Assembly (NCBI GenBank): GCA_900128565.1 | Contig: LT635949.1 | Coordinates: 1 to 34,852, forward strand | Length of the DNA stretch: 34,852 nucleotides | Origin: Stramenopiles sp. TOSAG23-6 | Lineage: Eukaryota | Direction of reading: 5' to 3' | In this document: positions 3,196 through 34,852 of the stretch, piece by piece | How positions within the stretch are numbered: the stretch's first letter is position 1 | How the letters are laid out: every line of letters begins with the position of its first letter | The notes under the pieces: model-generated | What the model saw: only the letters and a program-made list of their open reading frames with translations | Told to the model about the DNA's origin: nothing | The model's database searches: none | Position numbers and translations under genes: made by a program

Positions 3196-5392
3196 TCATG
3201 CTCTCCCTGGACATTGAAACCCGTCGGGTCCACAAGCAACATTGTCATCTACACGGTATGTAAATCCTGGGTTTTCAACAGGCCAGACATGACTTCCACC
3301 AGCTGGCATTTTTGGAGCATCAACACATTCAGTACATTTCTTTTCTGGGTCTAAAGTTACTTTTACTCTTGCTTGATGATTACAACAAATACCTAAAACA
3401 TTCCATGTTGATGTCATTTTTTCTGGTTGAGAGTTAAAATCACCATCAATTGCATTTGTTACAATTTCCAACTCAACTTTTTCACCATTTCGAAGTTTTT
3501 CTTTTACATGATCCGGTAAAGCAATTTTTTGCTGAAACTGTTGCCATGCCCAGTGACTTCCCATGCCGGATTGAGGATTTGATCTCATAGCACAATTAGC
3601 AGAGTCTGGATTTTTGGCACGATCATTTGGTCTTTGAATAACCAATTCTCTCTTACTTCTTGGTATTCCGATGGGTCCACTAAATAACTCAGCAGCTTGA
3701 TAAGAATCACCTCCATCAATAGATACTTCAACACGACATATCCCACGACCACCTCCAGACCAAGCTACACCCTCTACAGTTACACTATCCATTTGACCAG
3801 ATAAAGTAGCTCTATCAGGAGGTTCTGAAATGACAGACTGGACAGGTAAAGTTTGAATTACAGGACCTTGATCGAGTCGAAGTTTATCTTCTCCTTCACG
3901 TATGTGACCTTTAAATGTTACATCTGGTGCAAAATGACGATCAAGTTTTGATCCAGAGTCCAACTCTGACGGAGCTTCAGTCAAAATAATTCTAGAAACC
4001 CACTTCACATTACGACAACCAGCATGTCCTGGAGCTAAGAGACGAATAGGGTATCCATGATCACGTGGTAGAGTTTCATCATTCATCTCATACGCAAAAA
4101 TTGTGGAAAAATATTTAAAAAAATAAAAATCGTTAGGTAAAAAATTTTCTTTGTAAAAACTTTGAAATTTTTTAAGTGGACAACATACAAGAATTGCATC
4201 ACCAAATGGATTTACTACTTTTTCAATAGGTATTACTCCAGCATACGGTGTCCCAGTCTCATCCTGGTCTTCTCCAATAAAATTTACTATTTTCACTTTA
4301 GAATGAGAAACGTTTCCTAAAGCCATATATTGTGAAAAAATATGTCGTACGTTTGAAATTTGTTAGGTACGAAAATTGGTACAAAAGAAAATAAATTTGA
4401 AATTAAGTGATAAAAACATACATACCATCTACATCTAAACCTGCAACACGAAATATATCTCGAACTTTTACACCCACCCATTTTGCACAACCAATTGCAC
4501 CACCGCGCCAATGAGGTGCGACATATAAAGGGCGATCAGGGGTGACATAATCTTCTTGTCGATTTCCAGCGCATTGTAAAGCAGATACGACTTCATGTCT
4601 GGGAAATTTAGTCTTGAGATCTGCAAGAGTTAGTTTTAATTCTTTCGTTCCTGCATCTTCATTTGCTTCAATCTCTAAAACATAATCTTCAATATCAACG
4701 CTGGGTACAGGATTATGATTACGTACAAAAAATAAGTCATTTGGAGTTAAAAAATCATTCACCAAAGCTCTAAGTGGCGGTTCCATATTCCAAGGTTTCG
4801 TTGATGGTATGCGCATTTCTGTTGCTTTTGGCCTTTCTGGATCATCCTTGTATGCATCTTCAAATTGAGACTCATTTTTGACAATGATGGCATCTTCAGG
4901 GGATAAACTACCAATCCTATAGTCTTCGAGTAACTCACGAATGTGAGGTCGGTCATGGATTTCGTGATATACCCGCCAAAAGGCATGCAAATCTTGACCA
5001 GAAACCATCATGATACGCATAGCACCACCAGGATGAGCATCCATAAAGTTAGTGACATCATAAACACCACCATTGAGACTGACCCAAACGCGACCTTCAG
5101 GTGCGTTGCGAAACTCGTCCAAGGAGAAGATTCGGTTCAATGTACCTTCTGGAGGAGCTCCACCCGAGCCAAAGGTTCCTGCAACAGGGGCATCATCACT
5201 AAAAGTATTTTGGTTGCTCACAACTGCTGCCGCGAAAGCAGCTGATCCTGCTGCTAATCCATATATACCAAATTTACGGAAATTTGACCTAGGAGGAGAC
5301 ACAATATAACTTAAAGAACGACTTCTCGGTAAAGATAATCTAGACCTTGATGCTGAAAGGTGTAGTCTGTATCCACTATGTCGTAACAACAT
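3196..5392 (-). CDS. Sulfite-oxidase-family molybdoenzyme with an N-terminal cytochrome b5 domain; 3 exons (5392-4422, 4324-4189, 4095-3196; about 668 aa)
   Basis: It has an Arg/Ser-rich mitochondrial-type presequence plus a hydrophobic stretch, and a b5 domain (GVYDVTNFMDAHPGG). The Moco domain shows FFVRNH, LQCAGNR, AYEMNDETLPRDHGYPIRL and RNVKW. The dimerisation domain shows GVAWSGGGRGICRVEVSIDGG. The two ORFs join in frame after removal of two related AT-rich inserts. Confidence 0.9.
4096..4188 (-). other. Non-canonical intron, GT...TT, 93 nt (family member 2)
   Basis: It starts GTATGTTG, contains TACCTAAC and ends ATATTTTTCCACAATTTTT. Removal restores the conserved GDAIL|AYEMN motif. 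Confidence 0.8.
4325..4421 (-). other. Non-canonical intron, GT...AT, 97 nt (family member 1)
   Basis: It starts GTATGTTT, contains TACCTAAC and ends ATATTTTTTCACAATATAT. It contains an in-frame stop, so it must be removed. Joining AT|G gives DGMALGNV. A GT-AG alternative (4425-4317) is also in frame. Confidence 0.65.
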
Positions 5393-5758: not shown

Positions 5759-6437
5759 ATGAAAAATCGTGCAAAATTAGGAGTAGCATTATTATGTGCA
5801 TTAGTTGGATTTTTGATTTCCATAGTGGGCTGTATAGTTCCCTGGTCAAGAACGAGTTCAACCGTTGGAGGTTGTCGTTTCACAGGAGAATATGGTGTTT
5901 TGCAAATGTGTCTCGATGTGGAGTGTCCCGCAATAAAACAATATCGTTCTTGCGAGTCTACGACGAATGCACTAAAAGATTGGAGTGGTGAAGGGAAAAC
6001 TGCTTTTTCAAGAACAACATATGGCGCTCTCGCTTTATCTATAGTACGTCAAAATCCTTATCTCCCACCCTAACCCTAATCTCCCATACATTTCAACCAT
6101 ACCTAAAAAAAAATGATAACAATATAAAAGTCTTTCTATACACTAACAAAATTACAAATGCTTCCATTTACAATAACTAAAACAGCTTACCGTCACATTA
6201 TCAAGTATATGTATTGTACTAAATGTATTTTCACTGAGTTGCTCACCTGGACCTTGCTGGAAATGTGTTCACAGTTTTCTTGGTATACTCGGTGCGATAA
6301 CAGCAGGAACAGCTGTTATTCTTGCAAACGAATCCAATATTCTCCTTGTATTTTCTACATCTAACTCCAACCCTAATATTGTATCATATCTATTTGTATT
6401 CATTTTTGTTATTATTGATATATTGTCGACATTGTAG
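5759..6437 (+). CDS. Small four-TM membrane protein with claudin/PMP22-like topology; exons 5759-6043 and 6186-6437 (about 178 aa)
   Basis: TM1 is followed by PW...YGVLQMC...C...C, resembling the W-GLW-C-C loop. Splicing GTACGT...AACAG continues in frame (ALALSI|LTVTLSSICIVLNVF...) through further hydrophobic helices to TAG at 6437. Confidence 0.65.
6044..6185 (+). other. Canonical GT-AG spliceosomal intron, 142 nt
   Basis: GTACGT donor, CACTAAC and AACTAA branch-like motifs, and a CAG acceptor. It contains an in-frame stop, and removal restores the frame. It is A/C-rich and unrelated in sequence to the other four introns. Confidence 0.75.
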
Positions 6438-6659
6438 AATAAACACTACACCTTTAAAGGAATTCACGTAACAACATTTAGTCCGTACATTAGTTTTTAT
6501 TCTATGTGTTGTGTTTCTTTTCTTTTAACGTGTAGTGGTTTGCTAACATGGCATGCCAATTTAAGAAAAAATAATCCAGAATATATTCCAGCTTTTCAAT
6601 ATGCACAGTTTCAGCCTTAAGTGGAGTAGAAAATGAAACTGAATAATGAGAGAAAGATG

Positions 6660-6714
6660 AAAAAAACCTAAGTTTCTTTAGGCACAAAATTTCGTATGAA
6701 AAAAATAAATTTGA
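6660..6714 (-). mobile_element. Degenerate intergenic copy of the internal part of the non-canonical intron family
   Basis: The minus strand reads TCAAATTTATTTTTTTCATACGAAATTTTGTGCCTAAAGAAACTTAGGTTTTTTT. It aligns by eye with the ThrRS intron core TCGAATTTATTTTTCGTACGCAATTTTGTACCTAACAAATGTTAGGTTTTTTT at 45 of 53 positions plus a 2-nt gap. Confidence 0.6.
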
Positions 6715-7005
6715 TGAGTGTACAGTTGAAGAAAATATTTTTACCAAACCTTCATCAATTTTCAGTGGAAGAATCTCCTATATAATAAAAAAAATAATAT
6801 TTGTGTAAAGTTCTTTTTGTTTTACCTTTATTATAATCACAACATCTTATTACTTTATATGAACAAATTTTACGTTTTGTTGTGCTTTCCGGTACAAAAA
6901 AATGTGTTTTTCATAATTTTCTAATAATTAGAAGTATAAAGTAGCAATATCGTCTTGCATGAACTATCACTCTTGTGAATAATAAATTTATAAATTTGTC
7001 ATACA

Positions 7006-9254: not shown

Positions 9255-12200
9255 TTATGAAATTGGAGCGTCTGCCAAATTACTACGACATGAACCAGCA
9301 GTAGTTAGTAATGGTTTTCCTTGCCACGTAGCAACACATTCATCATTCGTTTTCAAATCTTTTGCCATTGCTTCCCACAATTTTTTCTTCTTCACTTGGC
9401 TTTTTGTTGCTGGAGTACCACTCAGTCCTTCAATAAATATGCGCTCACCATTCGCTGCACCAACAGGAGGTTCCACAAATTGAACTGCGTCGCCTAGTTT
9501 TGCACATAATACCATTCCCTCACTAGTCACACCAGCTAATTTTGCAGCTTTCAAATTTGCAACTACCAATACTTTTCGTCCTTCCATATCACTTACTTCT
9601 GGATAAAACTGTCGAAGACCTGAACTGATTGATCTCATACCAATTTCTGCTCCTAAGTCAATTTCTTCACACCATAATTTTTCAGAATCAGGATTTGGCC
9701 AAGCCTTTGTTATCGTTCCAACACGTATGTCAATCTTTGTAAATGAATCTTGATTTGGATCAGATGCTACCTTTTGCTTTTTCTTTCCTTTATTAGCATT
9801 TTTGTCACCTTTTTGAATGAGTTTTGCAGCTTCTAGGAGAGCAGATGGTTGTTGAGGTTTATCACAACATTCTTGCTTCATATTAGTAATTATTTGTTCA
9901 ATCGTTTTAACTTCTTGTCCATTTGTACCACGAGGACGAACCGCAGCCGACTTAATTGACATCTCAGCATCGCCAACTATTAAAATATAGTTATATTGAG
10001 CTAGAGACGCCTCACGAATTTTTTTTGGAAACTGTTTTGATGATAAATCTACGGAGACATGAAATCCAGCCATGTGTATTTTCTCCTTTACACTTCGAGC
10101 ATAATCATAATGAGCTTGAGCAATAGGGACAACCATAACTTGACGTGGGCTTAACCAAAGCGGCCATTTCCCACCATAATGCTCAGTAAGTATTGCAAAC
10201 ATTCGTTCAACAGACCCAAGCATTGCACGATGAACCATAACTGGTCTTTGAAACCCAGGAGCAGCTTCAGGATTTGAATTGGGTAAATTTTTATAAACAC
10301 CGCGACAAGAGGAGGATGATTCTGATTTCTTTTTTTGTTTCTTTTCTTTGGATTTTTCATTATCTGATTTTCGAATTTGTTCACCTGTACGATATTGTAA
10401 ATCGAAACGAATAGGTAGATTAAAATCTAATTGTACTGTAGCACACTGATGAATTCTGTCCATACAGTCAAATACTTTAATGTCAATTTTAGGACCATAA
10501 AATGCACCATCCCCAGGGTTATCTTTCCAATTGCCTTTTCCAGCAAACTCATCTAAAGCATTTGCTAATGACTCTTCAGCATCATCCCATCGTTTAAGTC
10601 CTTCAGGAGTATCAGCACCAACTGCTTTTTTAGGTCGAGTACTACGCTCAAGTTTAAATTTCATACCAAAAATAGAGTATACAGCTTTCATAAATTGAAG
10701 TGAACCAACAACTTCATCTTTCACTTGTTCAGGGGTGCAAAATATATGTGCATCATCTTGCTGGAAACGTCTGACACGTGTCAATCCAGTTAATGCACCA
10801 GAACGTTCATTACGATGTAAAACACCAAAATCAGCCATTCTGATGGGCATTTCTCTGAAAGTTCTGATTTGTTGACGAAACATTAAACAATGTCCAGGAC
10901 AATTCATTGGCTTCAAGGCAAATTCATCCTGATCACTTGTATTAAATAAAAACATATCATCTCTGTAGTGCTGATAATGACCTGAAATTTTCCATAAATC
11001 AGTTGAAAAAATATTCGGTGTAACAACTTCATCATAACCGCGCTGCCAATATTCATTTTTTATGAAATCGATTAAAGCATTGTATATACGAGCACCATGA
11101 GGAAGAAAGAAAGCTGATCCTGGAGTTAAATCATGAAAGAAAAATAATTGTTGACGAGGCCCAATGCGACGATGATCATTCATTCTTTTCAATTCCATCA
11201 CAGCTTTCCATTTTTTCATTTCTTTTTTATCAGGGAATGCAACACCATGTATTTTGGAAAAATATTTCAAAAAAAAAACCTAACATTTGTTAGGTACAAA
11301 ATTGCGTACGAAAAATAAATTCGAAATTGAAAAAAAATAAAACATACATATACACGCTGTAGTGAGTCACATTTTTCATCACCCATCCAATATGTTGCAC
11401 TATGTTTTATAACATCCATACACGTAATTGAAGAGGTTGTAGGCACGTGTGGTCCCATACATAAATCAATAAATGGTCCATTTTTGTACACTGTCGTAAA
11501 TGTATTATCTGTGACTTTTGTTCTTATAATTTCTAATTTAAAGGGATTATACTCAAACAACTCAAGTGCTTCAGCTTTAGAAACAATCATTCTTTCAAAC
11601 ACTTGTTTTTCTTTAATTGTTGTAGCATTTCTCTTGCTTAGTACCTGGTACCACTTTTCTTCTGTGACAACGTCTTTACCTACAAAAGCATCATAATAAA
11701 AACCATTTTTTAGTGGAGGACCAATGGTCAAGACAGCACCGAATTCACGCTCCATACTTTGACCTAGAATATGAGCTGCAGAGTGCTTAAATGTTGTTTT
11801 ACCCTCTGGTGTACTGTAATTATGAAAAATAATGTCACAATCGCCTTCTAGTGGTCTATTTAAGTCCCACAACTCAAATTCTTGTTTCTCACTGGCGGTA
11901 GTTGTATCCATCTCGTCTCCACCAGCCTCAGCCATCATTTCTTCTTCAGCGTGTGTCACAATATCAGCACCATATCTTACACCAGTATAGCGAACTTCTG
12001 CAACAAGTTGACGTTTAGCCATTTGTTTTGAAATGTTTAATGCAATCATCATTGGTGTAGTTTCCCACGTTGTTCCAGGGTGAGTCTTCTTATCTGGCAT
12101 GGTGACTGTCATTGCCTCCCGTGGTTTTTCAAGAAGACGTTTTTCATACGCAGCTTTTACACGATTATATACATCTTCACGAGCAGCAATAAACTGTGGC

Positions 12201-12397
12201 GATTTACACCCAGAATAAGAATCGCCTCCAATTTTACCTTTAGATTGAAGAGTATGGACTTGACCTTCGACAGCACGGTCTTTGTTGACACGACCTAATG
12301 TGCTCTGGAGCACATGGACATCCCCACTGCTCACTTTCAAGCGAGAAAGTTCTGCTTCCAATTCAGCAATACGTTGATCTCTTTCGTTTGGCGTCAT
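9255..12397 (-). CDS. TARS1: Cytosolic threonyl-tRNA synthetase with a C-terminal EMAPII-like tRNA-binding domain; exons 12397-11348 and 11246-9255 (about 1013 aa)
   Basis: TGS region (WETTP, LWDLNRPLEGDC), editing domain (HSAAH, GFYYD, DLCMGPH), LQRVY|GVAFPDKK across the intron, and DHRRIG. Catalytic motifs are LKPMNCPGHC, GLTRVRRFQQDDAH, GAFYGPKID and HRAMLGSVER. The anticodon domain is followed by IDIRVG...NLKAAKLAGVTSEGMVLCA. Confidence 0.95.
11247..11347 (-). other. Non-canonical intron, GT...AT, 101 nt (family member 3)
   Basis: It starts GTATGTTT, contains TACCTAAC and ends ATATTTTTCCAAAATACAT. It shifts the frame and contains a stop. Exact removal restores LQRVY|GVAFP. Confidence 0.8.
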
Positions 12398-14377: not shown

Positions 14378-14538
14378 ATTGTATCTAGTCCAAACGGAAC
14401 TACTAGCTAGAGAACGGTCTGTCCGTTACGAAGACGTTCCGAATTTTGAAATCCATATTCCTATTTATAAATCATTTGAAAACAAAGCCACAAAAAAAAA
14501 AGATGATCAATTATTTTTCAAATTCAAATTTATTTTCA

Positions 14539-17500
14539 TCAAGTAGAAGATTCACCACCTAATCCTAATAGAATACCCTTAGCTGCAGTAAATGTTAACT
14601 TGCCAGAACCATTTCCACCACTGCCAATATCGAGTAATTCTCTAGCATCATATATATCCACCTCATGTCCTAATCCACATAACCAATGTTTAAGCTCATT
14701 TGCTGTCATATAACCATCACCATCTGTATCACATAGATTAAATGAAGTTTTCCATTTAAATTCAAGTCTTTCTTGTTGTGTCATTGCATCCAGTATTTCG
14801 TGCGGATCATACTTCTCCTCATTTTCATCATATGATGAATCACTATTTGTGTCAATACTATCATTATTATTTTCAATACTATTATTATTAACATCGACAC
14901 TATAACTATTTGTGTCAATATTATTAATATTTTCAATATTATTATTATTATTAATATCGACAGTATAACTATTTGTGTCAATATTATTATTATTTATATC
15001 GATAGTATCATTATTTGTATCTGTACTATCATTTTTGTTTTGTTGATTTCTGACATGTTGCTGTATTACAATAGCTGCTCTATTTCTTGCTCTTTCTTTG
15101 ACATTTTCTATTTCTTGACTGAAATCCAAAAAAAAGTCATTTTGATTGATATTAGTATCATCTATATCATGCATAATGTTATTATTATCAATGTCAATTA
15201 GATCATTATTTTCAATAGCATTCATATTATTATTATTATCAATACTACCCATATCATTATTAACCTCAATATTATTATCATTATCAACATTATTAATTTT
15301 ATCGGCATAAGCAGTTGTAGCTATTAAAATATTTCTCTTTAATCGAACCATTTTTTGTATTTTTCTCACCGAACAAATTTCTAATTTGTTGAATTTGGTT
15401 TTATACTTTATATCCAATGAACATGTTACGAAATCTTCATATGAAACCATACCAGAATTAAATGTATCAAAATTCTTGGCTAATTGATTAATTTCTGGTA
15501 ATGACAAGAAATCCATTAATATTGGAGTTAGGACTTTACAAAATGTTTTTGTTGGAAGAGCCCCAACACGTTTCATGGGGTCAATAGAGTCAGTACAACG
15601 CAGTAATTTTCGCATATTTATACCTCTAACTCTCAAAAATGCAGCACCGCTGCTTAATTTTTGGAGAAGTTCATTTGTATCAATAGTATCATCATTCTTA
15701 TCAATAGTATTATTAATTGTAGTCTTTTGTTTTGATTCATCAGTCATATCTTTTGTAGAATCTAAAGAAAATGTGACATTTGTTGGACTATGCAGTCGAA
15801 TTTTTCGTGTTCTCCGAGCCTTTTGTGCTTTTTGTCGAGCAATTGCTAATTCTATTTCTTGAGTATATTGACCACGTAGTCGATCTCTTTCTAAACGAGC
15901 AGCATTTATTTTGTCATCAGCAAATCCAACACGACCTCCTCCTCGCGATGCTCGCTTTTTCATTTTGACAAAATTTCGTGTTTTTGCTGCTCTGTATGTA
16001 CTCTGTATAACTATTGCTGCATTGTTATGATTATTTATCGTGCGTTTTTTATCATATTGTTTATATAATGCTTGTAATGTCACTGCAACCTTTAATCTGG
16101 CATGTGTGCGCAATATATATTTGTGGCAGGTTTGACCAATAATTTGACTTGCATTTTTGTGTGTTTTGTGTTTTTTGTTTTTATTTCCTTTTTGGTCTAC
16201 CCTTTCATCATCATCATATTCAATACTGCTACCAGAGGCCAGGTCATTTATTGTATTGAGTTCATTTGGTGTATTACTATTTAAATCAACCACAGCAACA
16301 ACTACATTTCCTCTCTTGATAGCTTCAGATTTCTGAAGGACTTTCATTGAATCATTATGCCCTTTTTTAATATCATATCTCGCACAAGCAGTTTTACGCT
16401 GATAATCTCCTTCGCGTTTTCTCTCAATTTTAATAGTGGCAACCTTGCGACAAGCAATTACTATTCGTGCGTATGTCTGTATTTGAAGTGCACTGCGATT
16501 TTTATGTAGCATATCTTTTCGAACAGCCGATGCACGAATTATTCTTTGTAGTAATAAAGCTGCTTTATTTCGTGTGCATAATGTTCCACGAGTCAATCGA
16601 CCTCTGTGAAAACTTTGTAAGCGTATAGCAGCTATAGTTTGTTTTTGTTCATGCTGCTTCAATTTTTTACCAATGTTACGTGTCAAATAACCCCTTCCAA
16701 TACTTTGTATCTGTATTGCCGAAGTAATATAATCTGAAGAATCCAAATAATTATTATTATCATGAATGTCATTTTCCACTGTCTTCTGTATACTGTTATT
16801 ACCATGAATATCGTTTTTCACTGTCTTTTGTATATTATCGTTATCATGAATGTCATTTTTCATAGTCTTTTGTATATTATTATTATCGCATGTGTTTTGT
16901 ATGCTTTGTATGCGTTTTTTTGCTTGAGGAGATCGTCCAGGATACGGAACAGGCAAATCAGATTTTAGTGCTGATTTTAGTGCTGATTTTTCTTTAACTT
17001 TTTTTATTTTTTTTAACTTTTTTTCACTTTTTTTTTCACTTTCTGCTTTTTCTTCAGTCTGGTTTCTAGACTTTTGTTCCGATTGTGCAGATTTGACGAT
17101 TGCATTTCTTTGTTTTAATTTTGGTGCTTCTGTTTCTTCTGTTTTACTTCGTGACTTTAATCTTTGCTTTTGCTTTGTTCGCTTTAATCGTTGGTGTCGT
17201 ACAGGAACTATTTTTTCTACATTATTTTTTTCCTTATTTTTCGTTGATTTTATACTTTTTATTTTTTTTTTGTTTTGTTTTTTTTGTTTTGCTGAACTTT
17301 TAATTTTTTTCTCGGTTGATTCTACTTGCAAAATATCAGTATCATGACCGAGAAGACCAGTGTGTGAATTTATAATTTCGGTCCATTCAACATAGCCATC
17401 ATTATTAATATCTGTCACAGTTACAGTCATTTCAGCATCTAGCTTACTTTGCATTTGCCATTCATCCATAATCTCATTAGACAAGCTTTTTACATATAAA

Positions 17501-20500
17501 TTGACTGTATCTTTGATTCGGTCATAATTTGGTATTTCCCCATACTCAGTCTGTTTATTAATTTCAATAATTTGATTCCGTAGTTTTTGATATTTCCTGC
17601 AAGCGCCAATACATTTTTTCATATATAAAAATATCATAGTAAACATATCAACTGCATGATTAATTTGCAATTTACCTTTCCCATCCTTATTATAAGATTG
17701 CCAAATTGGTCTTAATTCAGAAACTCGTAGTTGTCCTAAAACACTAAACTTCAAACTTTTCATGCTTTTTGCATTTTGCGAAATTCGCGCAATGGCTGGA
17801 AGAAGTGCAGAAGTCAGTACGTCTTCATAATCACCAAATATTGTACTATAACGTGAATTATCATTCTCATTAATATTATCTTGTGTTGATTGAGGAAACT
17901 GCTCTGTACTTGGAGCATTTTCATCCAAATTTATGATTTTCAAATTTTGTAATTTATCTTTCTTTAATAATGCGACTTTTCGAAGATTTACTGCTTCTTC
18001 TGACCAATCTTCTACATGGAATCCAGCTAAAGCATGTTTTAATCGAAGGCGATCACCTACTCTTCGAATACCTAATTTTGTACTTAAAATATGATCGATA
18101 TAAACATCTCTCTCGCTACCAACCTTTTCATTATGTAATATATTTTTTGTTTGATCACCGATGATACCTTTTCGATCATCTATATCTGTACCTAAGATTG
18201 ATGCCTTCATTGCAAGTAAAGCATCAGAAGTAATGTTATGTTGCCAAAACTTTGATATAAAACTTGACATATTTAGCGATGATAAAAACATTTCCACAAT
18301 GACATCTCGAGGATGTACGACTGATGGTGATGGTTCAACTGATGGTTCAACTGATGGTGGTAGTGTTTGAGCATCATGTCTCTGTAATGATGCCACCCTT
18401 CTTGCTCCACTTGCGCTTTTTATTTTTCTACTATTTTTCTTACTTATCAAAGCAGATGATGTTTGAGGGCGACGTCCCAGTGGAATATTTGTCCCTTTTC
18501 GTGGAACATATATCTTTCTCTCTTTACCATTCTTCTTCGAATTATTTTTTCTATCCATCAGTGAATAAGATTTCGTGGTCTTTACATTAGGTTTTTGCCT
18601 AATTTTTCTTTCTATCTCAACTGTTGAGAGTTTCAAAAAGTTTTCTAAATATTTCAAATTGGCTGATGAAGGATCACCATGATTTCGGAGTAATAATAAA
18701 GTATACGGATTTTGTTTTTCATTACTATATTGATAAGGACTTTGCAACGCTGTCCTAATATTTATACTTGAATCACGTTCATTTATAGTACGTTGTTGTG
18801 ATGTATATCGCGTTGGTTTGGCTGAGTATGGTCTACGTTTATATTTATTGCTTTGTTTTTTGTGTACTGCAGAAAATGGTCGAGGTTTTCGAATTATTTT
18901 TTTTTTCGTGCTTTTCTTCTTTATTTTAATACCCATTGGCTCTATATTATTTTTTATCGCTTTCCCCATTCCAGATGAATGATGCTTGGCTATATTTTTA
19001 TTTTGTATCCTTGACATAAATCGATTATAATCAGCTCTACGTATCGGGGAACATTGTCGCCGGGATGTGTCAGTTAATTTAATAAAACTGCTATCTGGTG
19101 TTTTCAACTGTTCATTTTTTCCTTTTGTTTCTTCAGTACTTTTTCCTTTTGTTTCTTTAGTACTTTTGTTTATATGACTAGCTGTTGTTTTTTCATACTC
19201 AGGTGGAACATTAAGGCTTAGAGAAGTTATATCTGGCGTAGAAACAGGTTTATCCATAGCCATTATTGTCATATACGGATTTTCATTATTTCCGTTCTTT
19301 CCTACTCGTGGTCCTACAAGTAGTGTTTGTGGTACCAGAAATTCTGCATCGTGCATATTGCCATCTGGGCCCTTTACAGGAATTCGTGACTTATGAATAT
19401 TATTCCAAGATGTTTTCAATGGAGGAACAAAGCTATCATTATTTGTATGTGCTTTTTTTTTATTTCTCTTTTTTTGTAGATCTTTTGATTTTTTTTTAAC
19501 TTTAGTCCGTTTCTTAAATATTTTGTTTCGGAACACTTTGTAACGCTGATTAACAGTTTTCTCATCAAGATATGATTTACCTAGTTCTTTCAACATACTT
19601 TTCTGTTGTTTCTTATGCCAATCTGTGTTTGCTTTTACTTCAGTGATTAATGAGAGACTTTGCGACATAACATTACTATGATTGATATCTGGTGTTACTG
19701 CAAAATGAATCGTCCCATTTTTATTTAATACATCATCTGCACTTGATTTGACTGGCGTAAAATCACCTAATTGATTATTGACTTTATCAAACATTGGTGT
19801 TTTTATTTGTTTCATTGGCACTTTTGTATATTTTAATGGCGCTTTATATTTTATTGGTGATTTTGTTTGCTGTATTAGTGTTTTTCTTTGTCGAATTGGT
19901 GACTTCGTTTGTTTTATTGATGATTTTATTGGTTTTACTGATGATTTTACTTGTTTTACTGGTGATTTTTTTTCTTTCAGTTTTTTTATTGACGTTTCCA
20001 TGTCATTTGAGTTACTTTCAATGATATATTTTTTCCAGTTAGGAATATTTTGTTGTAGTGCATCTAATCCACGCATAGGTCTTGGATCAACATATTTTGT
20101 ATTATCAGAATCTGTAGTATTCTTTGCAACATCTGTAGAATTATCATTCTCATTATCTATTGTATTATTATTCTCAACATCTATTGTATTATTATTCTCA
20201 ACATCTATAGTATCATTATTCTCAACATCTATAGTATCAGTATTCTCAACATCTATAGTATTATTATTCTCAACATCTATAGTATCATTATTCTCAACAT
20301 CTATAGTATTATTAGTAACACTTTCAGAATTGAGAACTGCTTTCTGCAACGTTTCGGAGACAATACTTTTATCTGCATTAGTTTGTGTAAGTAAATTATC
20401 TGAAAGATGTATTGCAAGTGCCTGTTCATGCATGGCTTTTGCTTCAGAAACTCTACCAAGTTTTTCTAATTGACTGCCATGACTATGATAAGCAATTACT

Positions 20501-21405
20501 AAATTACTTCTATGACTCCTTGCTTTTTGAGTTAATTCATGAATTTGAGATCTCACAGAAACATCTTCCACAATACTATTATTATCAATATTCTGATCAC
20601 TGTCAATGTTATTTTTACTACCAGTAGGAGATGTAGAACCAAAAAAAGAACCACTATAAAGACTTTTCGATGTATGTATTGATTCGCTATTTGTAGTCGT
20701 TTTCAATATTTTGTCTATTGTTTCGCCAATTATTTCGATTTCTTCTTCTAAATTTTTTATCGCAATGAGTGAATATTGTAATGCATCATAATGCTGTTGA
20801 TTTGAAGCCAATAATGAACTCATATTTAGTGACGTAACTGCAATCAATGGCCGACATCCTACACCATTTTTTATAGAATCACTTTCCATATTTTTATGAC
20901 CATCTGGTAAAGAACTTGCTATAGAATATGCTCTATCCAAGTGTTTCATTGCTAGCTTTGGTTGAGCAATCAACTGATAAAATAGAGCGAAATTATTGCT
21001 AGTAGTCACGTGTGCTCGACCAACGTTAGCGTAAAGATACATTTTCTTCTCTTTCATGGCGGTATTGTTAAAAGAAGGGGAAGCTAAAGAAGAAGGAATT
21101 ATTCCAGTAGTGTTTTGATCATTCCAAGGTGGCAAAATTGACGCAGCTTCGACTAAATATCTACGTATCAATTGATATTTTGAAGCATTGCGACGCTCTA
21201 TATATTGTCTAGCAACATGATTTAGGTGCTCTGTAAGTAATAAAGTTTGAGATATCGTATTTATAGACTGAAGACCGCTTTCTTTACGAACAAGTAGCAA
21301 AGATCGCTTACTTTGTTCAATCGACTGTTCTAATTTCCCTTTATTCCACAAATCAGTAGCTTCATCTTCACTTTGTTGAACTGACTCGCTTTGTACACCA
21401 TGCAT
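14539..21405 (-). CDS. 2288-aa multidomain protein: TPR-like N-terminus, low-complexity region, SAM-like domain, EF-hands, several IQ motifs and a C-terminal EF-hand pair
   Basis: Uninterrupted ORF with TPR-like helices (NNFALFYQLIAQPKLAMKHLDRA; AYHSHGSQLEKLGRVSEAKAMHEQAL) and a SAM-like segment (MFLSSLNMSSFISKFWQHNIT...LGIRRVGDRLRL). IQ motifs are IQSIGRGYLTR, LQSFHRGRLTR and IQSTYRAAKTR. EF loops are DINNDGYVEWTE, DTFNSGMVSYED and DTDGDGYMTANE. Confidence 0.85.
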   Translation of the reverse strand: MHGVQSESVQQSEDEATDLWNKGKLEQSIEQSKRSLLLVRKESGLQSINTISQTLLLTEHLNHVARQYIERRNASKYQLIRRYLVEAASILPPWNDQNTTGIIPSSLASPSFNNTAMKEKKMYLYANVGRAHVTTSNNFALFYQLIAQPKLAMKHLDRAYSIASSLPDGHKNMESDSIKNGVGCRPLIAVTSLNMSSLLASNQQHYDALQYSLIAIKNLEEEIEIIGETIDKILKTTTNSESIHTSKSLYSGSFFGSTSPTGSKNNIDSDQNIDNNSIVEDVSVRSQIHELTQKARSHRSNLVIAYHSHGSQLEKLGRVSEAKAMHEQALAIHLSDNLLTQTNADKSIVSETLQKAVLNSESVTNNTIDVENNDTIDVENNNTIDVENTDTIDVENNDTIDVENNNTIDVENNNTIDNENDNSTDVAKNTTDSDNTKYVDPRPMRGLDALQQNIPNWKKYIIESNSNDMETSIKKLKEKKSPVKQVKSSVKPIKSSIKQTKSPIRQRKTLIQQTKSPIKYKAPLKYTKVPMKQIKTPMFDKVNNQLGDFTPVKSSADDVLNKNGTIHFAVTPDINHSNVMSQSLSLITEVKANTDWHKKQQKSMLKELGKSYLDEKTVNQRYKVFRNKIFKKRTKVKKKSKDLQKKRNKKKAHTNNDSFVPPLKTSWNNIHKSRIPVKGPDGNMHDAEFLVPQTLLVGPRVGKNGNNENPYMTIMAMDKPVSTPDITSLSLNVPPEYEKTTASHINKSTKETKGKSTEETKGKNEQLKTPDSSFIKLTDTSRRQCSPIRRADYNRFMSRIQNKNIAKHHSSGMGKAIKNNIEPMGIKIKKKSTKKKIIRKPRPFSAVHKKQSNKYKRRPYSAKPTRYTSQQRTINERDSSINIRTALQSPYQYSNEKQNPYTLLLLRNHGDPSSANLKYLENFLKLSTVEIERKIRQKPNVKTTKSYSLMDRKNNSKKNGKERKIYVPRKGTNIPLGRRPQTSSALISKKNSRKIKSASGARRVASLQRHDAQTLPPSVEPSVEPSPSVVHPRDVIVEMFLSSLNMSSFISKFWQHNITSDALLAMKASILGTDIDDRKGIIGDQTKNILHNEKVGSERDVYIDHILSTKLGIRRVGDRLRLKHALAGFHVEDWSEEAVNLRKVALLKKDKLQNLKIINLDENAPSTEQFPQSTQDNINENDNSRYSTIFGDYEDVLTSALLPAIARISQNAKSMKSLKFSVLGQLRVSELRPIWQSYNKDGKGKLQINHAVDMFTMIFLYMKKCIGACRKYQKLRNQIIEINKQTEYGEIPNYDRIKDTVNLYVKSLSNEIMDEWQMQSKLDAEMTVTVTDINNDGYVEWTEIINSHTGLLGHDTDILQVESTEKKIKSSAKQKKQNKKKIKSIKSTKNKEKNNVEKIVPVRHQRLKRTKQKQRLKSRSKTEETEAPKLKQRNAIVKSAQSEQKSRNQTEEKAESEKKSEKKLKKIKKVKEKSALKSALKSDLPVPYPGRSPQAKKRIQSIQNTCDNNNIQKTMKNDIHDNDNIQKTVKNDIHGNNSIQKTVENDIHDNNNYLDSSDYITSAIQIQSIGRGYLTRNIGKKLKQHEQKQTIAAIRLQSFHRGRLTRGTLCTRNKAALLLQRIIRASAVRKDMLHKNRSALQIQTYARIVIACRKVATIKIERKREGDYQRKTACARYDIKKGHNDSMKVLQKSEAIKRGNVVVAVVDLNSNTPNELNTINDLASGSSIEYDDDERVDQKGNKNKKHKTHKNASQIIGQTCHKYILRTHARLKVAVTLQALYKQYDKKRTINNHNNAAIVIQSTYRAAKTRNFVKMKKRASRGGGRVGFADDKINAARLERDRLRGQYTQEIELAIARQKAQKARRTRKIRLHSPTNVTFSLDSTKDMTDESKQKTTINNTIDKNDDTIDTNELLQKLSSGAAFLRVRGINMRKLLRCTDSIDPMKRVGALPTKTFCKVLTPILMDFLSLPEINQLAKNFDTFNSGMVSYEDFVTCSLDIKYKTKFNKLEICSVRKIQKMVRLKRNILIATTAYADKINNVDNDNNIEVNNDMGSIDNNNNMNAIENNDLIDIDNNNIMHDIDDTNINQNDFFLDFSQEIENVKERARNRAAIVIQQHVRNQQNKNDSTDTNNDTIDINNNNIDTNSYTVDINNNNNIENINNIDTNSYSVDVNNNSIENNNDSIDTNSDSSYDENEEKYDPHEILDAMTQQERLEFKWKTSFNLCDTDGDGYMTANELKHWLCGLGHEVDIYDARELLDIGSGGNGSGKLTFTAAKGILLGLGGESST
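20155..20312 (-). repeat. Coding 24-nt minisatellite encoding (N[ND]TIDVEN)n, about 6-7 copies
   Basis: Repeated TTCTCAACATCTAT units on the plus strand. The translation shows NNTIDVEN/NDTIDVEN repeats. Ends are approximate. Confidence 0.85.
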
Positions 21406-21715
21406 TATTCTAATATATGACTGTGCATATATCTATAATCAAATGTTAAAGCAAAATGGAGAAAGTGAATACAATTCAGAACAGAACCTTGCGTATAACA
21501 ACGTGGTAGTAAACTATTAGTAATTTTTACTCTAGCTACTGGTACAAGCCTAATAACACTATAACGCTAATAATTGGTAACGGCCAAAAAATAAACGGAT
21601 GAACAAACCGAACAAACCTGTTGTTCTCTTCGATTTTGAAATTGAATGAAATGAAATGAAAGAATTCAATTTGATTTACTTTAGTTGATCTTTTACTAAT
21701 GCCAACATCAACACA

Positions 21716-22306
21716 ATGGATCGGATAACATGCTCACAGGAGGAAGAACACATTTCTTCATCAGATGATGATCTTCCAAGTCTTGCAAATAGACTACGTT
21801 GCAAAATGTCATCAAATATTTCTTTCTTAGTTGTATCGTCAACAATAGCTGACCTTCAAACAAAAAATGGCGAGAAAATCGTCACTGCACTATCGAAAGC
21901 ACAGCGAAGAGCATATCGAAAAAAAGCTCGACAGGATAACTTACGGAGTACTCAGTACAATGTTGATATTACAAAAAGTGGAAAAAATTTAAAGAAAGAA
22001 AATAAATTTAGCCTGAATATAGATGAGAATCATAAGAAAACAAATTATAATAAAAGTGTGGTGAAGACAACTTTGCCATCTAGTGTGTCAAGTGTACCTA
22101 AAGCATTACACGCCAAACGTCCCGTAATCTCTACCATTGACAGTGAACCAGCCATAAAAAGACAAAAAGCAAAAAATGCAATAGATTCAAAATTAACAAA
22201 AAGTGCAATAGATTCAAAATTAACAAAAAGTGCAATAGATTCAAAATTAACAAAAAATCCATGGTCACTATCTCTACTAAAGGGAAAAAAAAAAGTTGCA
22301 AGTTAA
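21716..22306 (+). CDS. Basic low-complexity protein, function unknown; possibly a partial duplicate of a locus at the right window edge
   Basis: 196-aa ATG-initiated ORF, divergent from the 2288-aa gene. Its last codons are duplicated exactly at 34798-34852 on the minus strand. Confidence 0.55.
   Translation: MDRITCSQEEEHISSSDDDLPSLANRLRCKMSSNISFLVVSSTIADLQTKNGEKIVTALSKAQRRAYRKKARQDNLRSTQYNVDITKSGKNLKKENKFSLNIDENHKKTNYNKSVVKTTLPSSVSSVPKALHAKRPVISTIDSEPAIKRQKAKNAIDSKLTKSAIDSKLTKSAIDSKLTKNPWSLSLLKGKKKVAS
22177..22257 (+). repeat. 27-nt coding tandem repeat x3 (AIDSKLTKS)
   Basis: TGCAATAGATTCAAAATTAACAAAAAG at 22177, 22204 and 22231 (the last copy ends in A). Confidence 0.95.
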
Positions 22307-22389
22307 AGTAAAAAAGACGAAAGAGATCGGACAACCATTTTTTCTTCTCTAAAAGAAGAACACTAACTATACTATATACATTTTTGATT

Positions 22390-24726: not shown

Positions 24727-25975
24727 ATGGCGAAGGGACATGGTCTTAATTCATGCTACTTGGCAATTTATTATGCAACGTTATCAATAGTTTGGTTAAG
24801 CTTAGCAGTATATGCTTCATTATTTTACGAAACTTATGAAGAAAACTGTTCCGCGACTTGTCCGCTTGTTACTTTAGATGTTGCCTATGTTAATGAAAAA
24901 ATTGCAGCAGGGGACCAAAGAGTAATAGACTTCTATGGTGGTGCAACATATAATAATGATCCAATTAATACAGTATCTTCAAAATTTTGTTACAGATCGG
25001 GGGCAATATGTCTTAAAAAACCTGAGACCGATGGACAATTGCGTAACCAGTGCGAAGTTTACAGTGAAATTTATAATCTGACAGCAGCAGACGCTTGGAA
25101 ATACAAGTGCTTGATTTGCGATGAAACCAATCAGTCTAGAGTCTTATGGCCTTCTTTAACAACATCACTAGAGAGTTTTTGGAACGTAGCACAACCTTGC
25201 GGCGAAGTAAGTATAGTACCTGGAATACCAGAGACGGATATCCCCACAGCGCTTTTTCCAGATATGCCAATCGACTCTCGTCAAGAAAAAGGCTATTTCA
25301 GGTATCCATTCGGTGTAGGCGATTATACAATGTGTTATAACTTTGATGAACCAAGTGATTTCTGGATTACTGTAGCAAAATTGTCTCTTAAAATTTCTAT
25401 TTATATTTTTTTCATTAATTCAACTTTAGGTTTACTATCAGCGGCGATACTGGCAACGTTTCATAAAGTACTTTTAAGCGATTGGAATAGACTGTCACTT
25501 CCCAAGCAATGTGCTTCATACTTATTGACAATTATGATGAAATTACTTAAAATTTCATGGTTGATTGGTTTCTGCGTTTCCTTTATTGCTTTAGGTACTA
25601 ATGGATTGGATAAAACTTGCGTTTTTCAAGAAACTGAATTAGGGTCCGTTGATGTTTATCCAAAGGCAGAAGCGTTTTGTTGGGCCTCATTTATTTCTTA
25701 TTTATTAGTACTCATCTATCGTAATTTTAGAAGGCAAGATATTGTGTGTTGTCTATTTTAATTTCAAATATATTTTTTTATTGAAAATTTCTAACCTGAC
25801 GAATTTCAAACTTATAACATATTTTCTTACTATACTTATCGGTGATGTGCAGTTTATGTATATACCATATGAACTATCGCCAGTTAGATCTGATGATAAG
25901 TGTGACTGTGGAAGTTTCTATCGTGTTTTTTTACAACCATGCTTTGTATATTTTGAAAAATATGTCGGCCCATAA
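24727..25975 (+). CDS. Multi-pass membrane protein with a Cys-rich luminal loop; exons 24727-25743 and 25838-25975 (about 384 aa)
   Basis: N-terminal TM, a Cys- and N-glycan-site-rich loop, then three further hydrophobic helices. The two overlapping ORFs join in frame once the family intron is removed. Confidence 0.7.
25744..25837 (+). other. Non-canonical intron, GT...TT, 94 nt (family member 4)
   Basis: It starts GTGTGTTG, contains AATTTCAAA and AACCTGAC, and ends ATATTTTCTTACTATACTT. Cutting at the end of the 19-nt block gives the in-frame join RQDI|IGDVQF. A CAG at 25850-25852 is an in-frame alternative. Confidence 0.55.
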
Positions 25976-32332: not shown

Positions 32333-33142
32333 TCAACGATTGTTATATTTCTCTTGCTCATATCTGTCTTGTACTTTGTGATGCACTTGTTGTTTTTCCC
32401 ATTGTTCGGAGTCTACCCACGGATCGAGATAATATTTATTATTTTCTATGTTCTTCTTTTTTTCATTATTTATTCTTTTATTTAACAGCCAATTCCACTG
32501 TTCTTGCTCAAAAAGCAAACTTTCATCATCGTATGTTTTCTGATGATTATCTATATCCATTAATCTAAGTGGTATATCTTTCCCATATTCAGAAGGGTTA
32601 TCCTTTCTATTTTGACTATAATGCGGACTTGGAACAATAGTAGGAGAAATAAACGTGTCATAATTACTTTTAATAGGCTCTGATGTGTCATTGTTCTCAT
32701 GTTTAAATTTCGAATTTGCATAATGCTGTGGTATATATCGTGTTGATGATCTACGCATCATTCTATCTATACCTTTTTCTTGTGCTTCACGAACTATCCG
32801 TTGATATTTCGTAGGCTCTTGTGCATTACGCAGTACGTCACTAATTCTATATTTACTTCCATAAGCAAGAGCTCCGATATGTGCTCCAATAGCAGCACCG
32901 AATAATACAAATGGTAACCTATGTGTAGACTTGGCAGTAAATTTCAAACCGCTACGCACAAGATATTTAGGGTGTTGGCGGCATAAAGCGTAACTCGCAG
33001 CGCCGGCAACACTTCCAACTACAAAGCCTTTAAAGCCACCGGTCCATATTGCACGACGTATATCCGCGATTTGACGAAAGTCTTCGGGTTCTAAAATGTC
33101 CTGTAATGACTTTTTCTTCTCATCTCTACGTGGGCTATCCAT
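32333..33142 (-). CDS. Two-TM membrane protein, function unknown
   Basis: 269-aa ATG-initiated ORF with two Gly/Ala-rich hydrophobic helices near the N-terminus and a hydrophilic tail. Confidence 0.7.
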   Translation of the reverse strand: MDSPRRDEKKKSLQDILEPEDFRQIADIRRAIWTGGFKGFVVGSVAGAASYALCRQHPKYLVRSGLKFTAKSTHRLPFVLFGAAIGAHIGALAYGSKYRISDVLRNAQEPTKYQRIVREAQEKGIDRMMRRSSTRYIPQHYANSKFKHENNDTSEPIKSNYDTFISPTIVPSPHYSQNRKDNPSEYGKDIPLRLMDIDNHQKTYDDESLLFEQEQWNWLLNKRINNEKKKNIENNKYYLDPWVDSEQWEKQQVHHKVQDRYEQEKYNNR

Positions 33143-34744: not shown

Positions 34745-34797
34745 TTTCCCTTTTATATTTTGTTGACTCTTCTCTTTACTATTATTCGGTCTTTTTT

Positions 34798-34852
34798 CTT
34801 TAACTTGCAACTTTTTTTTTTCCCTTTAGTAGAGATAGTGACCATGGATTTT
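34798..34852 (-). repeat. 55-bp exact inverted copy of 22254-22308 at the window edge
   Basis: The reverse complement reads AAAATCCATGGTCACTATCTCTACTAAAGGGAAAAAAAAAAGTTGCAAGTTAAAG, identical to 22254-22308. Confidence 0.95.

Follow-up and report, generated by a model that had tools for sequence, protein, structure and literature searches.

Almost every spliceosomal intron ends in AG, and transposon models of intron gain assume that a new intron must find or create this dinucleotide. Here we describe a family of short introns with AT or TT ends, located in a 34.8-kb stretch of DNA (contig LT635949.1 of Stramenopiles sp. TOSAG23-6, positions 1 to 34,852; hereafter the window). Work by Huff et al. 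in 2016 reportedly dealt with introners of Micromonas, Aureococcus and others, the kind of element to which this family is compared below.

The following account of the closest described systems follows selected portions of the reports cited. Introners of Micromonas, Aureococcus, Chrysochromulina, Symbiodinium and others are short, non-autonomous intron-making elements, which also occur outside genes (Gozashti et al. 2022, 10.1101/2022.06.06.494994; PMC12130899). Some of these families bring their own 5′ splice site, the 3′ one being derived from the target-site duplication, which is 4 bp in Chrysochromulina (10.1101/2022.06.06.494994; PMC12130899). Because the co-opted 3′ site is still AG, such classical introners can be removed seamlessly only if an AG is present within or beside the target; failing that, the coding sequence gains or loses codons. 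In Amoebophrya sp. A25 and A120, repeated introners of a non-GT-AG type carry direct repeats of 3-5 nucleotides (nt) over the exon-intron boundaries (Farhat et al. 2021, PMC7789003). These boundary repeats prevent the cut from being located exactly, and the portions cited describe no transposase inside the element, no conserved terminal dinucleotide, inverted repeats of 8-20 nt with clear hairpins, and an apparently missing U1 (PMC7789003). In Fritillaria borealis, 95% of the introns are non-canonical and start with AG; their 3′ end is not AG (AT or AC), and YAY is found before the 5′ site and as the last three intron bases (PMC13326754). Duplicated U2AF subunits are involved in that system, and a link to introner transposons with weak sites is discussed (PMC13326754).

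Our literature search (supplements excluded) retrieved no description of the introns of the lineage to which the window belongs, and the one comparative-genomics paper on it does not contain the word "intron". For the window, we found that the existence of the intron family and its removal at non-AG ends are well supported. We lean, with modest confidence, towards the interpretation that a short introner-like element spread in the genome of a marine stramenopile-like protist and is cut at WT (W, A or T) without AG.

The intron family and its exon junctions

Five copies of one sequence of 93-106 nt were found in the window. Four of them, 93-101 nt long, interrupt coding sequences, all in the sense orientation: one in the gene for threonyl-tRNA synthetase (ThrRS), two in a sulfite oxidase gene, and one in the gene for an orphan membrane protein. 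The ThrRS intron (11247..11347, minus strand, 101 nt, GT..AT) begins with GTATGT and ends in ..AAAATACAT. The sulfite oxidase gene contains, on the same strand, intron A (4325..4421, 97 nt, GT..AT) and intron B (4096..4188, 93 nt, GT..TT). The membrane-protein intron (25744..25837, plus strand, 94 nt, GTGTGT..TT) separates the exons 24727-25743 and 25838-25975. Retention of the family introns would truncate the protein in all four cases. The fifth copy (about 6640..6745, minus strand) is non-coding; it starts 20 nt past the stop codon (6620) of a plus-strand gene, to which it is antisense. Its 5′ GTATGT is degenerate, its CCTAA..TTAGG hairpin is kept, and it was retained in an RNA contig from which the GT-AG introns of the adjoining plus-strand gene were removed.

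The four introns share GTATGT or GTGTGT at the 5′ end, a TACCTAAC-like branch box, a T-rich tract and a CCACAAT-like block. The branch boxes read TACCTAAC (as in the ThrRS intron) or AACCTGAC and are of the CTRAY type, as in canonical U2-type introns; the distance from the branch A to the junction was 43, 38, 37 and 38 nt in the ThrRS intron, intron A, intron B and the membrane-protein intron, respectively. Blocks conserved throughout the family were AATTTCAAATTTATTTT, which sits downstream of the 5′ site and ahead of the branch box, TTTTGTACCTAAC and ATATTTTTCCACAAT, after which come four variable bases. In every intron, the junction falls 4 nt after the CCACAAT-like (ATATTTTTCCACAAT-like) block, and the intron ends in AT or TT, never in AG.

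The relationship extends over the whole length of the copies. Mean column identity was 64% for the five copies and 76% for the four introns, and leave-one-out nhmmer searches recovered the left-out copies at E values of 1.8e-8, 1.1e-6, 9e-4, 4.8e-5 and 3.8e-5. In the same searches over the 34.8 kb, no other match was observed below E 0.02, and two ordinary GT-AG introns were not matched. These two, at 6044..6185 (142 nt, plus strand, GTACGT..ACACTAAC..CAG) and 6348..6437 (90 nt, plus strand), are supported by RNA and were used as controls; the ordinary introns of the window use CTAAC-type branch boxes, and the family introns carry the same box type. Four introns in three unrelated genes and one non-coding copy thus belong to one repeated sequence family, and the introns are therefore introner-like.

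Two additional stretches reported by a repeat finder (14503-14536 and 32683-32717) look like chance AT-rich matches. A pattern scan of metagenome contigs returned at least 118 loci, and among the matches listed none was a family member by nhmmer. A stricter pattern on genome contigs gave one chance match, in a Bacillota metagenome-assembled genome, and three pattern scans of viral contigs gave 0, 57 and 4 loci, with a best nhmmer match of E=0.12. As a separate observation, in the ThrRS copy (11270-11300) and the non-coding copy (6665-6690), read in minus orientation, the branch box forms one half of a perfect 5-6 bp hairpin, CCTAAC..GTTAGG. One contig of the run X3, described below, had 9 nt fewer in this hairpin stretch.

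Three of the four junctions (ThrRS, A and B) were fixed independently by homologues. ThrRS exon 1 (11348..12397, minus strand) encodes the TGS and second additional domains and ends in ..SLQRVY, and exon 2 (9255..11246, minus strand, stop codon included) starts with GVAFPD.. and encodes the class II core, the anticodon-binding domain and a C-terminal tRNA_bind domain. On the minus strand, ..SLQRVY is followed by the 101-nt intron and then by GVAFPDKKEMKKW... When aligned with S. aureus ThrRS (1nyq_A), exon 1 reached residue 217 (plus a cut-off Y) and exon 2 began at residue 219; the exons likewise abutted on consecutive residues of E. coli ThrRS (1qf6_A). Among 13 relatives, 11 read LQR[VL]Y[GSA].. 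with no insertion, one stops short of the site, and the last is the public ThrRS model P0003. The C-terminal tRNA-binding domain (9255-9800, minus strand) is EMAP-II-like (PF01588); its fusion to ThrRS was also observed in the nearest relatives (about 54-62% identity), but the diatom and Ectocarpus entries listed did not have it.

P0003 is identical to the window protein wherever the two align, and it reads ..SLQRV-FFLKYFSKIH-GVAFPD at the site of the intron. It joins the upstream GT to an internal AG, which gives rise to a spurious 10-residue insertion at the true intron. It also lacks several conserved coding stretches, removed as false introns, and is a poor model because these stretches are deleted. 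The public entry P0003 represents the same ThrRS gene, modelled ab initio and forced onto GT-AG sites; ab initio gene models of this lineage seem unreliable.

The sulfite oxidase gene (3196..5392, minus strand; exons 5392-4422, 4324-4189 and 4095-3196) encodes cytochrome b5, molybdenum cofactor (Mo-co) binding and dimerisation domains. Splicing at the non-AG sites gave an open reading frame of 668 amino acids without a stop, and this protein showed 82% identity over 599 amino acids to the relative P0124, with 0 gaps. The 47 amino acids of exon 2 were uninformative by themselves in phmmer and Pfam searches, and a word-based search gave seven relatives. Six of the seven reach junction A, and all six keep the three residues plus G or R that a canonical AG would remove, the sequence being MALG in four of them. 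Junction B is spanned as DA[IL]LAYEMN in six of the seven, and the seventh stops at DAILA. Exon 3 opens with AYEMND.. at position 123 of the PF00174 profile and at residue 271 of chicken sulfite oxidase.

The membrane protein had no homologue at E<=0.001 among 1598 candidates; hence, its junction was placed only provisionally, from the family alignment and the reading frame. We listed all registers that the boundary repeats allow in the four copies, and none was GT-AG or GC-AG. One register of the ThrRS intron reads AT..AC, and the same register in the other copies reads AT..AT, TT..TT and TT..AC. Between the branch box and the junction, three copies contain no AG; the ThrRS intron has one in this interval, 9 nt after the branch A and inside the CCTAAC/GTTAGG hairpin. 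The next AG past the junction is 8-25 nt into the exon. As judged from these alignments, the junctions of three copies are exact and non-AG.

Removal from RNA was observed for intron B. In contigs of X10 and X11, two polyadenylated (polyA) metatranscriptome runs of a single study, 93 nt at 4095-4187 are skipped (register ambiguous by 3 nt), which corresponds exactly to intron B, and the X11 record is wholly explained by its two sides (933+77=1010 letters). In the same runs, the plus-strand gene next to it had lost the introns 6044-6185 and 6348-6437. The X10 and X11 contigs are real spliced RNA because these ordinary GT..AG introns are removed in them, and they are from another strain because they differ from the window at 3-4 of about 900 bases. 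Strictly, they show a functional message without the element at exactly the bases of intron B, which does not imply splicing by this cell. No joint across the ThrRS intron or intron A was present among the RNA contig pieces listed. Removal from mRNA is accordingly indicated by RNA for intron B and by homology for the ThrRS intron and intron A; the seamless removal at non-AG ends that the initial annotation had proposed was supported by these contigs and by the homologue alignments.

Two other runs labelled as RNA, X3 and X6, are uninformative on splicing because they are unspliced even across GT-AG introns. Joints of X6 with sides of 23-24 letters, and long X10 skips between element sites, were treated as other copies or chimeras. 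In X10, 708 contigs aligned to the window, nearly all on element sites, and the summed depth was about 7080 in the bin of the ThrRS intron versus 12 or less in most others. Furthermore, at 11246/11247, exactly where the ThrRS intron ends on its 3′ side, the similarity of 21 X10 and 2 X11 contigs breaks off, and these contigs then continue into differing flanks. This depth and these breaks suggest that the family is abundant and that its edge coincides with the splice junction. In addition, one X10 contig (11349 -> 11257) seemed to contain two family elements only about 28-40 nt apart, an arrangement that would amount to a micro-exon flanked by two family introns at another place in the genome.

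Boundary repeats, terminal pairing and rival explanations

The initial annotation had noted that the last two intron bases equal the last two bases of the upstream exon, and had taken this dinucleotide as a target-site duplication. The equality was confirmed in all four family introns (AT/AT, AT/AT, TT/TT and TT/TT in the ThrRS intron, intron A, intron B and the membrane-protein intron, in the order used hereafter) and does not extend to every intron of the window, the two GT..AG introns having no direct repeat. In three of these introns a G follows on either side, as had also been noted. The full microhomology at the junction was 3, 4, 3 and 2 nt (ATG, TATG, TTG and TT), and its sum of 12 exceeded chance when compared with 200,000 random junctions of the same lengths in the window (P=0.002). 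A duplication is not the only source of such symmetry: ordinary introns of the form AG|G..AG|G have the same formal symmetry without one. Position -1 is T at all four exon ends and all four intron ends, +1 is nearly always G, and position -3 matches between exon and intron in one copy. Repeats beyond chance are as well explained by a WT|G consensus as by duplication, and a target-site duplication is plausible but unproven.

The element ends had also been described as roughly complementary, in the manner of terminal inverted repeats. When the first and last 9 nt were compared, Watson-Crick pairs numbered 6, 6, 5 and 5 of 9 in the four introns; with G.U pairs the counts rose to 8, 8, 7 and 7 (null P for at least 7, 0.03), and the ordinary introns gave 3 and 5 of 9. 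Once the dinucleotide was set aside, the longest run was four consecutive Watson-Crick pairs, in the ThrRS intron only. The minimum-energy fold pairs both ends only in this copy, and no end-to-end structure was conserved among the folds predicted for the RNA of the five copies. A weak pairing, best with G.U, therefore stands as described, whereas terminal inverted repeats of a DNA transposon are plausible but unproven. Terminal complementarity looks like a weak family-level feature, more like RNA pairing than a DNA repeat.

These observations bear on an explanation that accepts the repeated family and its non-AG removal but dispenses with duplication and DNA transposon. According to it, WT|G is a junction consensus or an insertion-site preference, as in reverse splicing, and the complementarity of the ends is a feature of the RNA. 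The constant T at -1 and the G next to it in three of four introns are what a consensus predicts, the variation being confined to -2 and the match at -3 to one copy, and two more copies in RNA contigs have ..AT before GTATGT. The pairing with G.U exceeds the identity at the DNA level, it includes the terminal WT, and pairings between copies score 5-9. A similar triplet, YAY, is repeated at the non-canonical introns of Fritillaria in the portion of that report cited (PMC13326754). Against it, position -2 matches in four of four, the repeat of intron A is 4 nt long, duplications of 3-8 bp are described in many introner families elsewhere (10.1101/2022.06.06.494994, PMC12130899), and the antisense, untranslated fifth copy is easier to explain by insertion of DNA. 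We consider this explanation rather doubtful, although it deserves to be taken seriously.

The other explanations that we weighed were far less probable. If the introns were old residents of an intron-poor genome that had converged on extended splicing signals under shared constraint, with no mobility, then conserved blocks would be expected at the 5′ site, branch box, T-tract and 3′ end, where most of them indeed lie. However, the AATTTCAAATTTATTTT block between the 5′ site and the branch box is conserved too, the two RNA-supported GT-AG introns share none of the family sequence, one copy is non-coding and antisense, and hundreds of contigs of one RNA run bear the element; convergence is thus very unlikely. 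The non-coding antisense copy argues for insertion rather than for conserved splicing signals alone. Precise excision of DNA is recognised by short direct repeats, one copy of which stays behind, and the removal could have taken place in DNA, between short repeats as in the ciliate pointer type, or the RNA could have come from strains free of the insert, as the few base differences of the X10 and X11 contigs would allow. Yet the elements, as do the window's ordinary introns, possess a complete 5′ splice site and a branch box, the four coding copies are all sense whereas the non-coding copy is antisense with a decayed 5′ site, and the interrupted ThrRS gene is essential and single-copy. Nuclear dimorphism is not known from this lineage, and we regard removal or absence at the DNA level as improbable. 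Least credible of all was that the introns are ordinary GT-AG introns and that the proteins carry small in-frame insertions or deletions. P0003 takes this form, and in-frame GT..AG alternatives exist for intron A (dropping MALG), intron B (dropping AYE) and the membrane-protein intron (dropping IGDVQ). This explanation is already contradicted at intron B, which is joined at a non-AG site in RNA contigs of two runs; AYE corresponds to PF00174 positions 123-125 and aligns from residue 271 of chicken sulfite oxidase, all six relatives that reach junction A have MALG-type residues, all 11 true ThrRS orthologues are without the insertion, and P0003 deletes conserved coding stretches besides. Group II, bulge-helix-bulge and HAC1-type splicing were set aside, as the copies carry a 5′ site and a branch box like ordinary introns.

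Several points weigh against the introner-like element that we prefer. The copies known from genomic DNA are the five of this 34.8-kb window, and no transposase was seen in the window by domain annotation of its proteins. The pairing of the ends shows no covariation, because the scores between copies overlap those within copies, and the four introns fold no better than shuffled sequences (z -1.77, 0.23, 0.22 and 0.96). At the boundaries, only position -2 varies (A/A, A/A, T/T, T/T), for which the four matches correspond to a permutation P of 1/6, and the two copies glimpsed in RNA contigs, from their 5′ side only, fit a WT consensus as well as a duplication. The membrane-protein intron has an in-frame canonical alternative, GTGTGT..GTGCAG, 15 nt downstream, which drops five residues. 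RNA supports one junction, that of intron B, and the contigs concerned stem from a different strain, in which the insert may simply be absent. Related species may be among the sources of the 708 X10 contigs. Finally, sequence signals alone suggest removal by the spliceosome, and AG-independent 3′ cleavage by a U2-type spliceosome is without a demonstrated mechanism here. Taken together, the introner origin put forward in the initial annotation was upheld as far as it concerns a repeated family with a non-coding antisense copy and abundance in the polyA run X10; its derivation from a transposon, with duplication and inverted repeats, is plausible but unproven.

The window and its other features

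The window is gene-dense, with about 35% G+C and long open frames on both strands. Its genes are eukaryotic and include a calcium-dependent protein kinase, other kinases and a FAD-linked oxidase in addition to sulfite oxidase and ThrRS. The nearest proteins carry the marine stramenopile (MAST) names given by their sources, which is a hint of lineage only. The plus-strand gene at 5759-6620 encodes a small four-helix membrane protein of 209 amino acids and contains the two ordinary introns; these, being GT-AG introns with CTAAC-type branch boxes, show the standard splicing system at work.

An inverted repeat with nearly identical arms of about 62-68 nt (22254-22321 and 34785-34852, 94% complementary) was found; the arms are 12.4 kb apart, and one of them ends exactly at the last base of the window. 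It could be a repeat at a contig break, or a chimera produced by amplification or assembly. A single open frame of 2297 amino acids (14539-21432, minus strand) encodes C-terminal EF-hands and contains long tandem repeat arrays of 21 nt and 24 nt at 14818-15318 and 20090-20329. An Rfam scan of the window gave nothing at the gathering score.

Proposed mechanism and comparison with known systems

We propose that each copy of the introner-like element supplies its own 5′ splice site (GTATGT or GTGTGT), U2-type branch box (TACCTAAC), T-rich tract and ATATTTTTCCACAAT-like 3′ block. The spliceosome, to which these signals point, would perform the first step normally. The second step may be placed by the 3′ block or by the distance of roughly 38 nt from the branch point, and not by AG, so that the transcript would be cut 4 nt beyond the block, at WT|. 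The element would have entered by insertion, leaving a short repeat, one copy of which is presumed to be removed with the intron. As the cut would fall at the exact end of the inserted DNA, including one repeat copy of 2-4 nt, the reading frame would be restored. Past or present mobility of the element, and the nature of the repeat as a target-site duplication, are likewise suggested by the combined observations.

If this interpretation is true, then either a mobile element is able to bring about a 3′ cut that does not depend on sequence, or the lineage chooses its 3′ sites independently of AG. A stronger form, which we put forward only tentatively, is a self-sufficient introner whose 5′ site, branch box and 3′ "ruler" block fix the cut at the end of the insert, whatever the bases there. 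Such an element could insert anywhere in coding sequence and leave no scar on removal, and intron gain would be free of AG-containing targets; moreover, AG-independent second-step splicing would occur in a U2-type system that also handles GT-AG introns in the same cell. Genes with family introns are mis-modelled because standard gene finders force GT-AG, and systematic errors at these sites may run through the proteomes of such uncultured marine protists.

In U12-type introns the 3′ terminal dinucleotide can vary, the 5′ box is RTATCCTT, and the branch box lies about 10-20 nt from the end. One register of the ThrRS intron resembles them in reading AT..AC; the family was nevertheless rejected as U12-type, since the RTATCCTT box is absent, no TCCTTAAC box lies 10-20 nt from the 3′ end, and the family has a U2-type branch box situated 37-43 nt before the end. 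The further comparisons refer to the portions of the reports cited above. Like classical introners, the family is a short repeated element that carries a 5′ site and has one copy outside coding sequence; unlike them, it is removed exactly although the junction is AT or TT. With the introners of Amoebophrya it shares a repeated intron family in a marine protist, a non-GT-AG boundary, direct repeats (here of 2-4 nt) over the boundaries, within which the cut cannot be located exactly, some complementarity of the ends and the lack of a transposase inside the element. It differs from them in its strong GTATGT and U2-type branch box, only the 3′ AG being missing, and in its coexistence with GT-AG introns; whereas Amoebophrya shows clear hairpins, here 7-8 of 9 end positions pair with G.U included, and the folds are not significant. 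As in Fritillaria, the introns have a non-AG end, and two of the four copies read TAT|..CAT| and TAT|..TAT|; in contrast to Fritillaria, the 5′ end follows the canonical pattern, and the non-canonical introns all belong to one sequence family that exists next to ordinary introns. What is new relative to Amoebophrya, classical introners and Fritillaria, as far as those portions describe them, is the combination of a canonical 5′ half, an exact 3′ junction without AG, and ordinary introns alongside.

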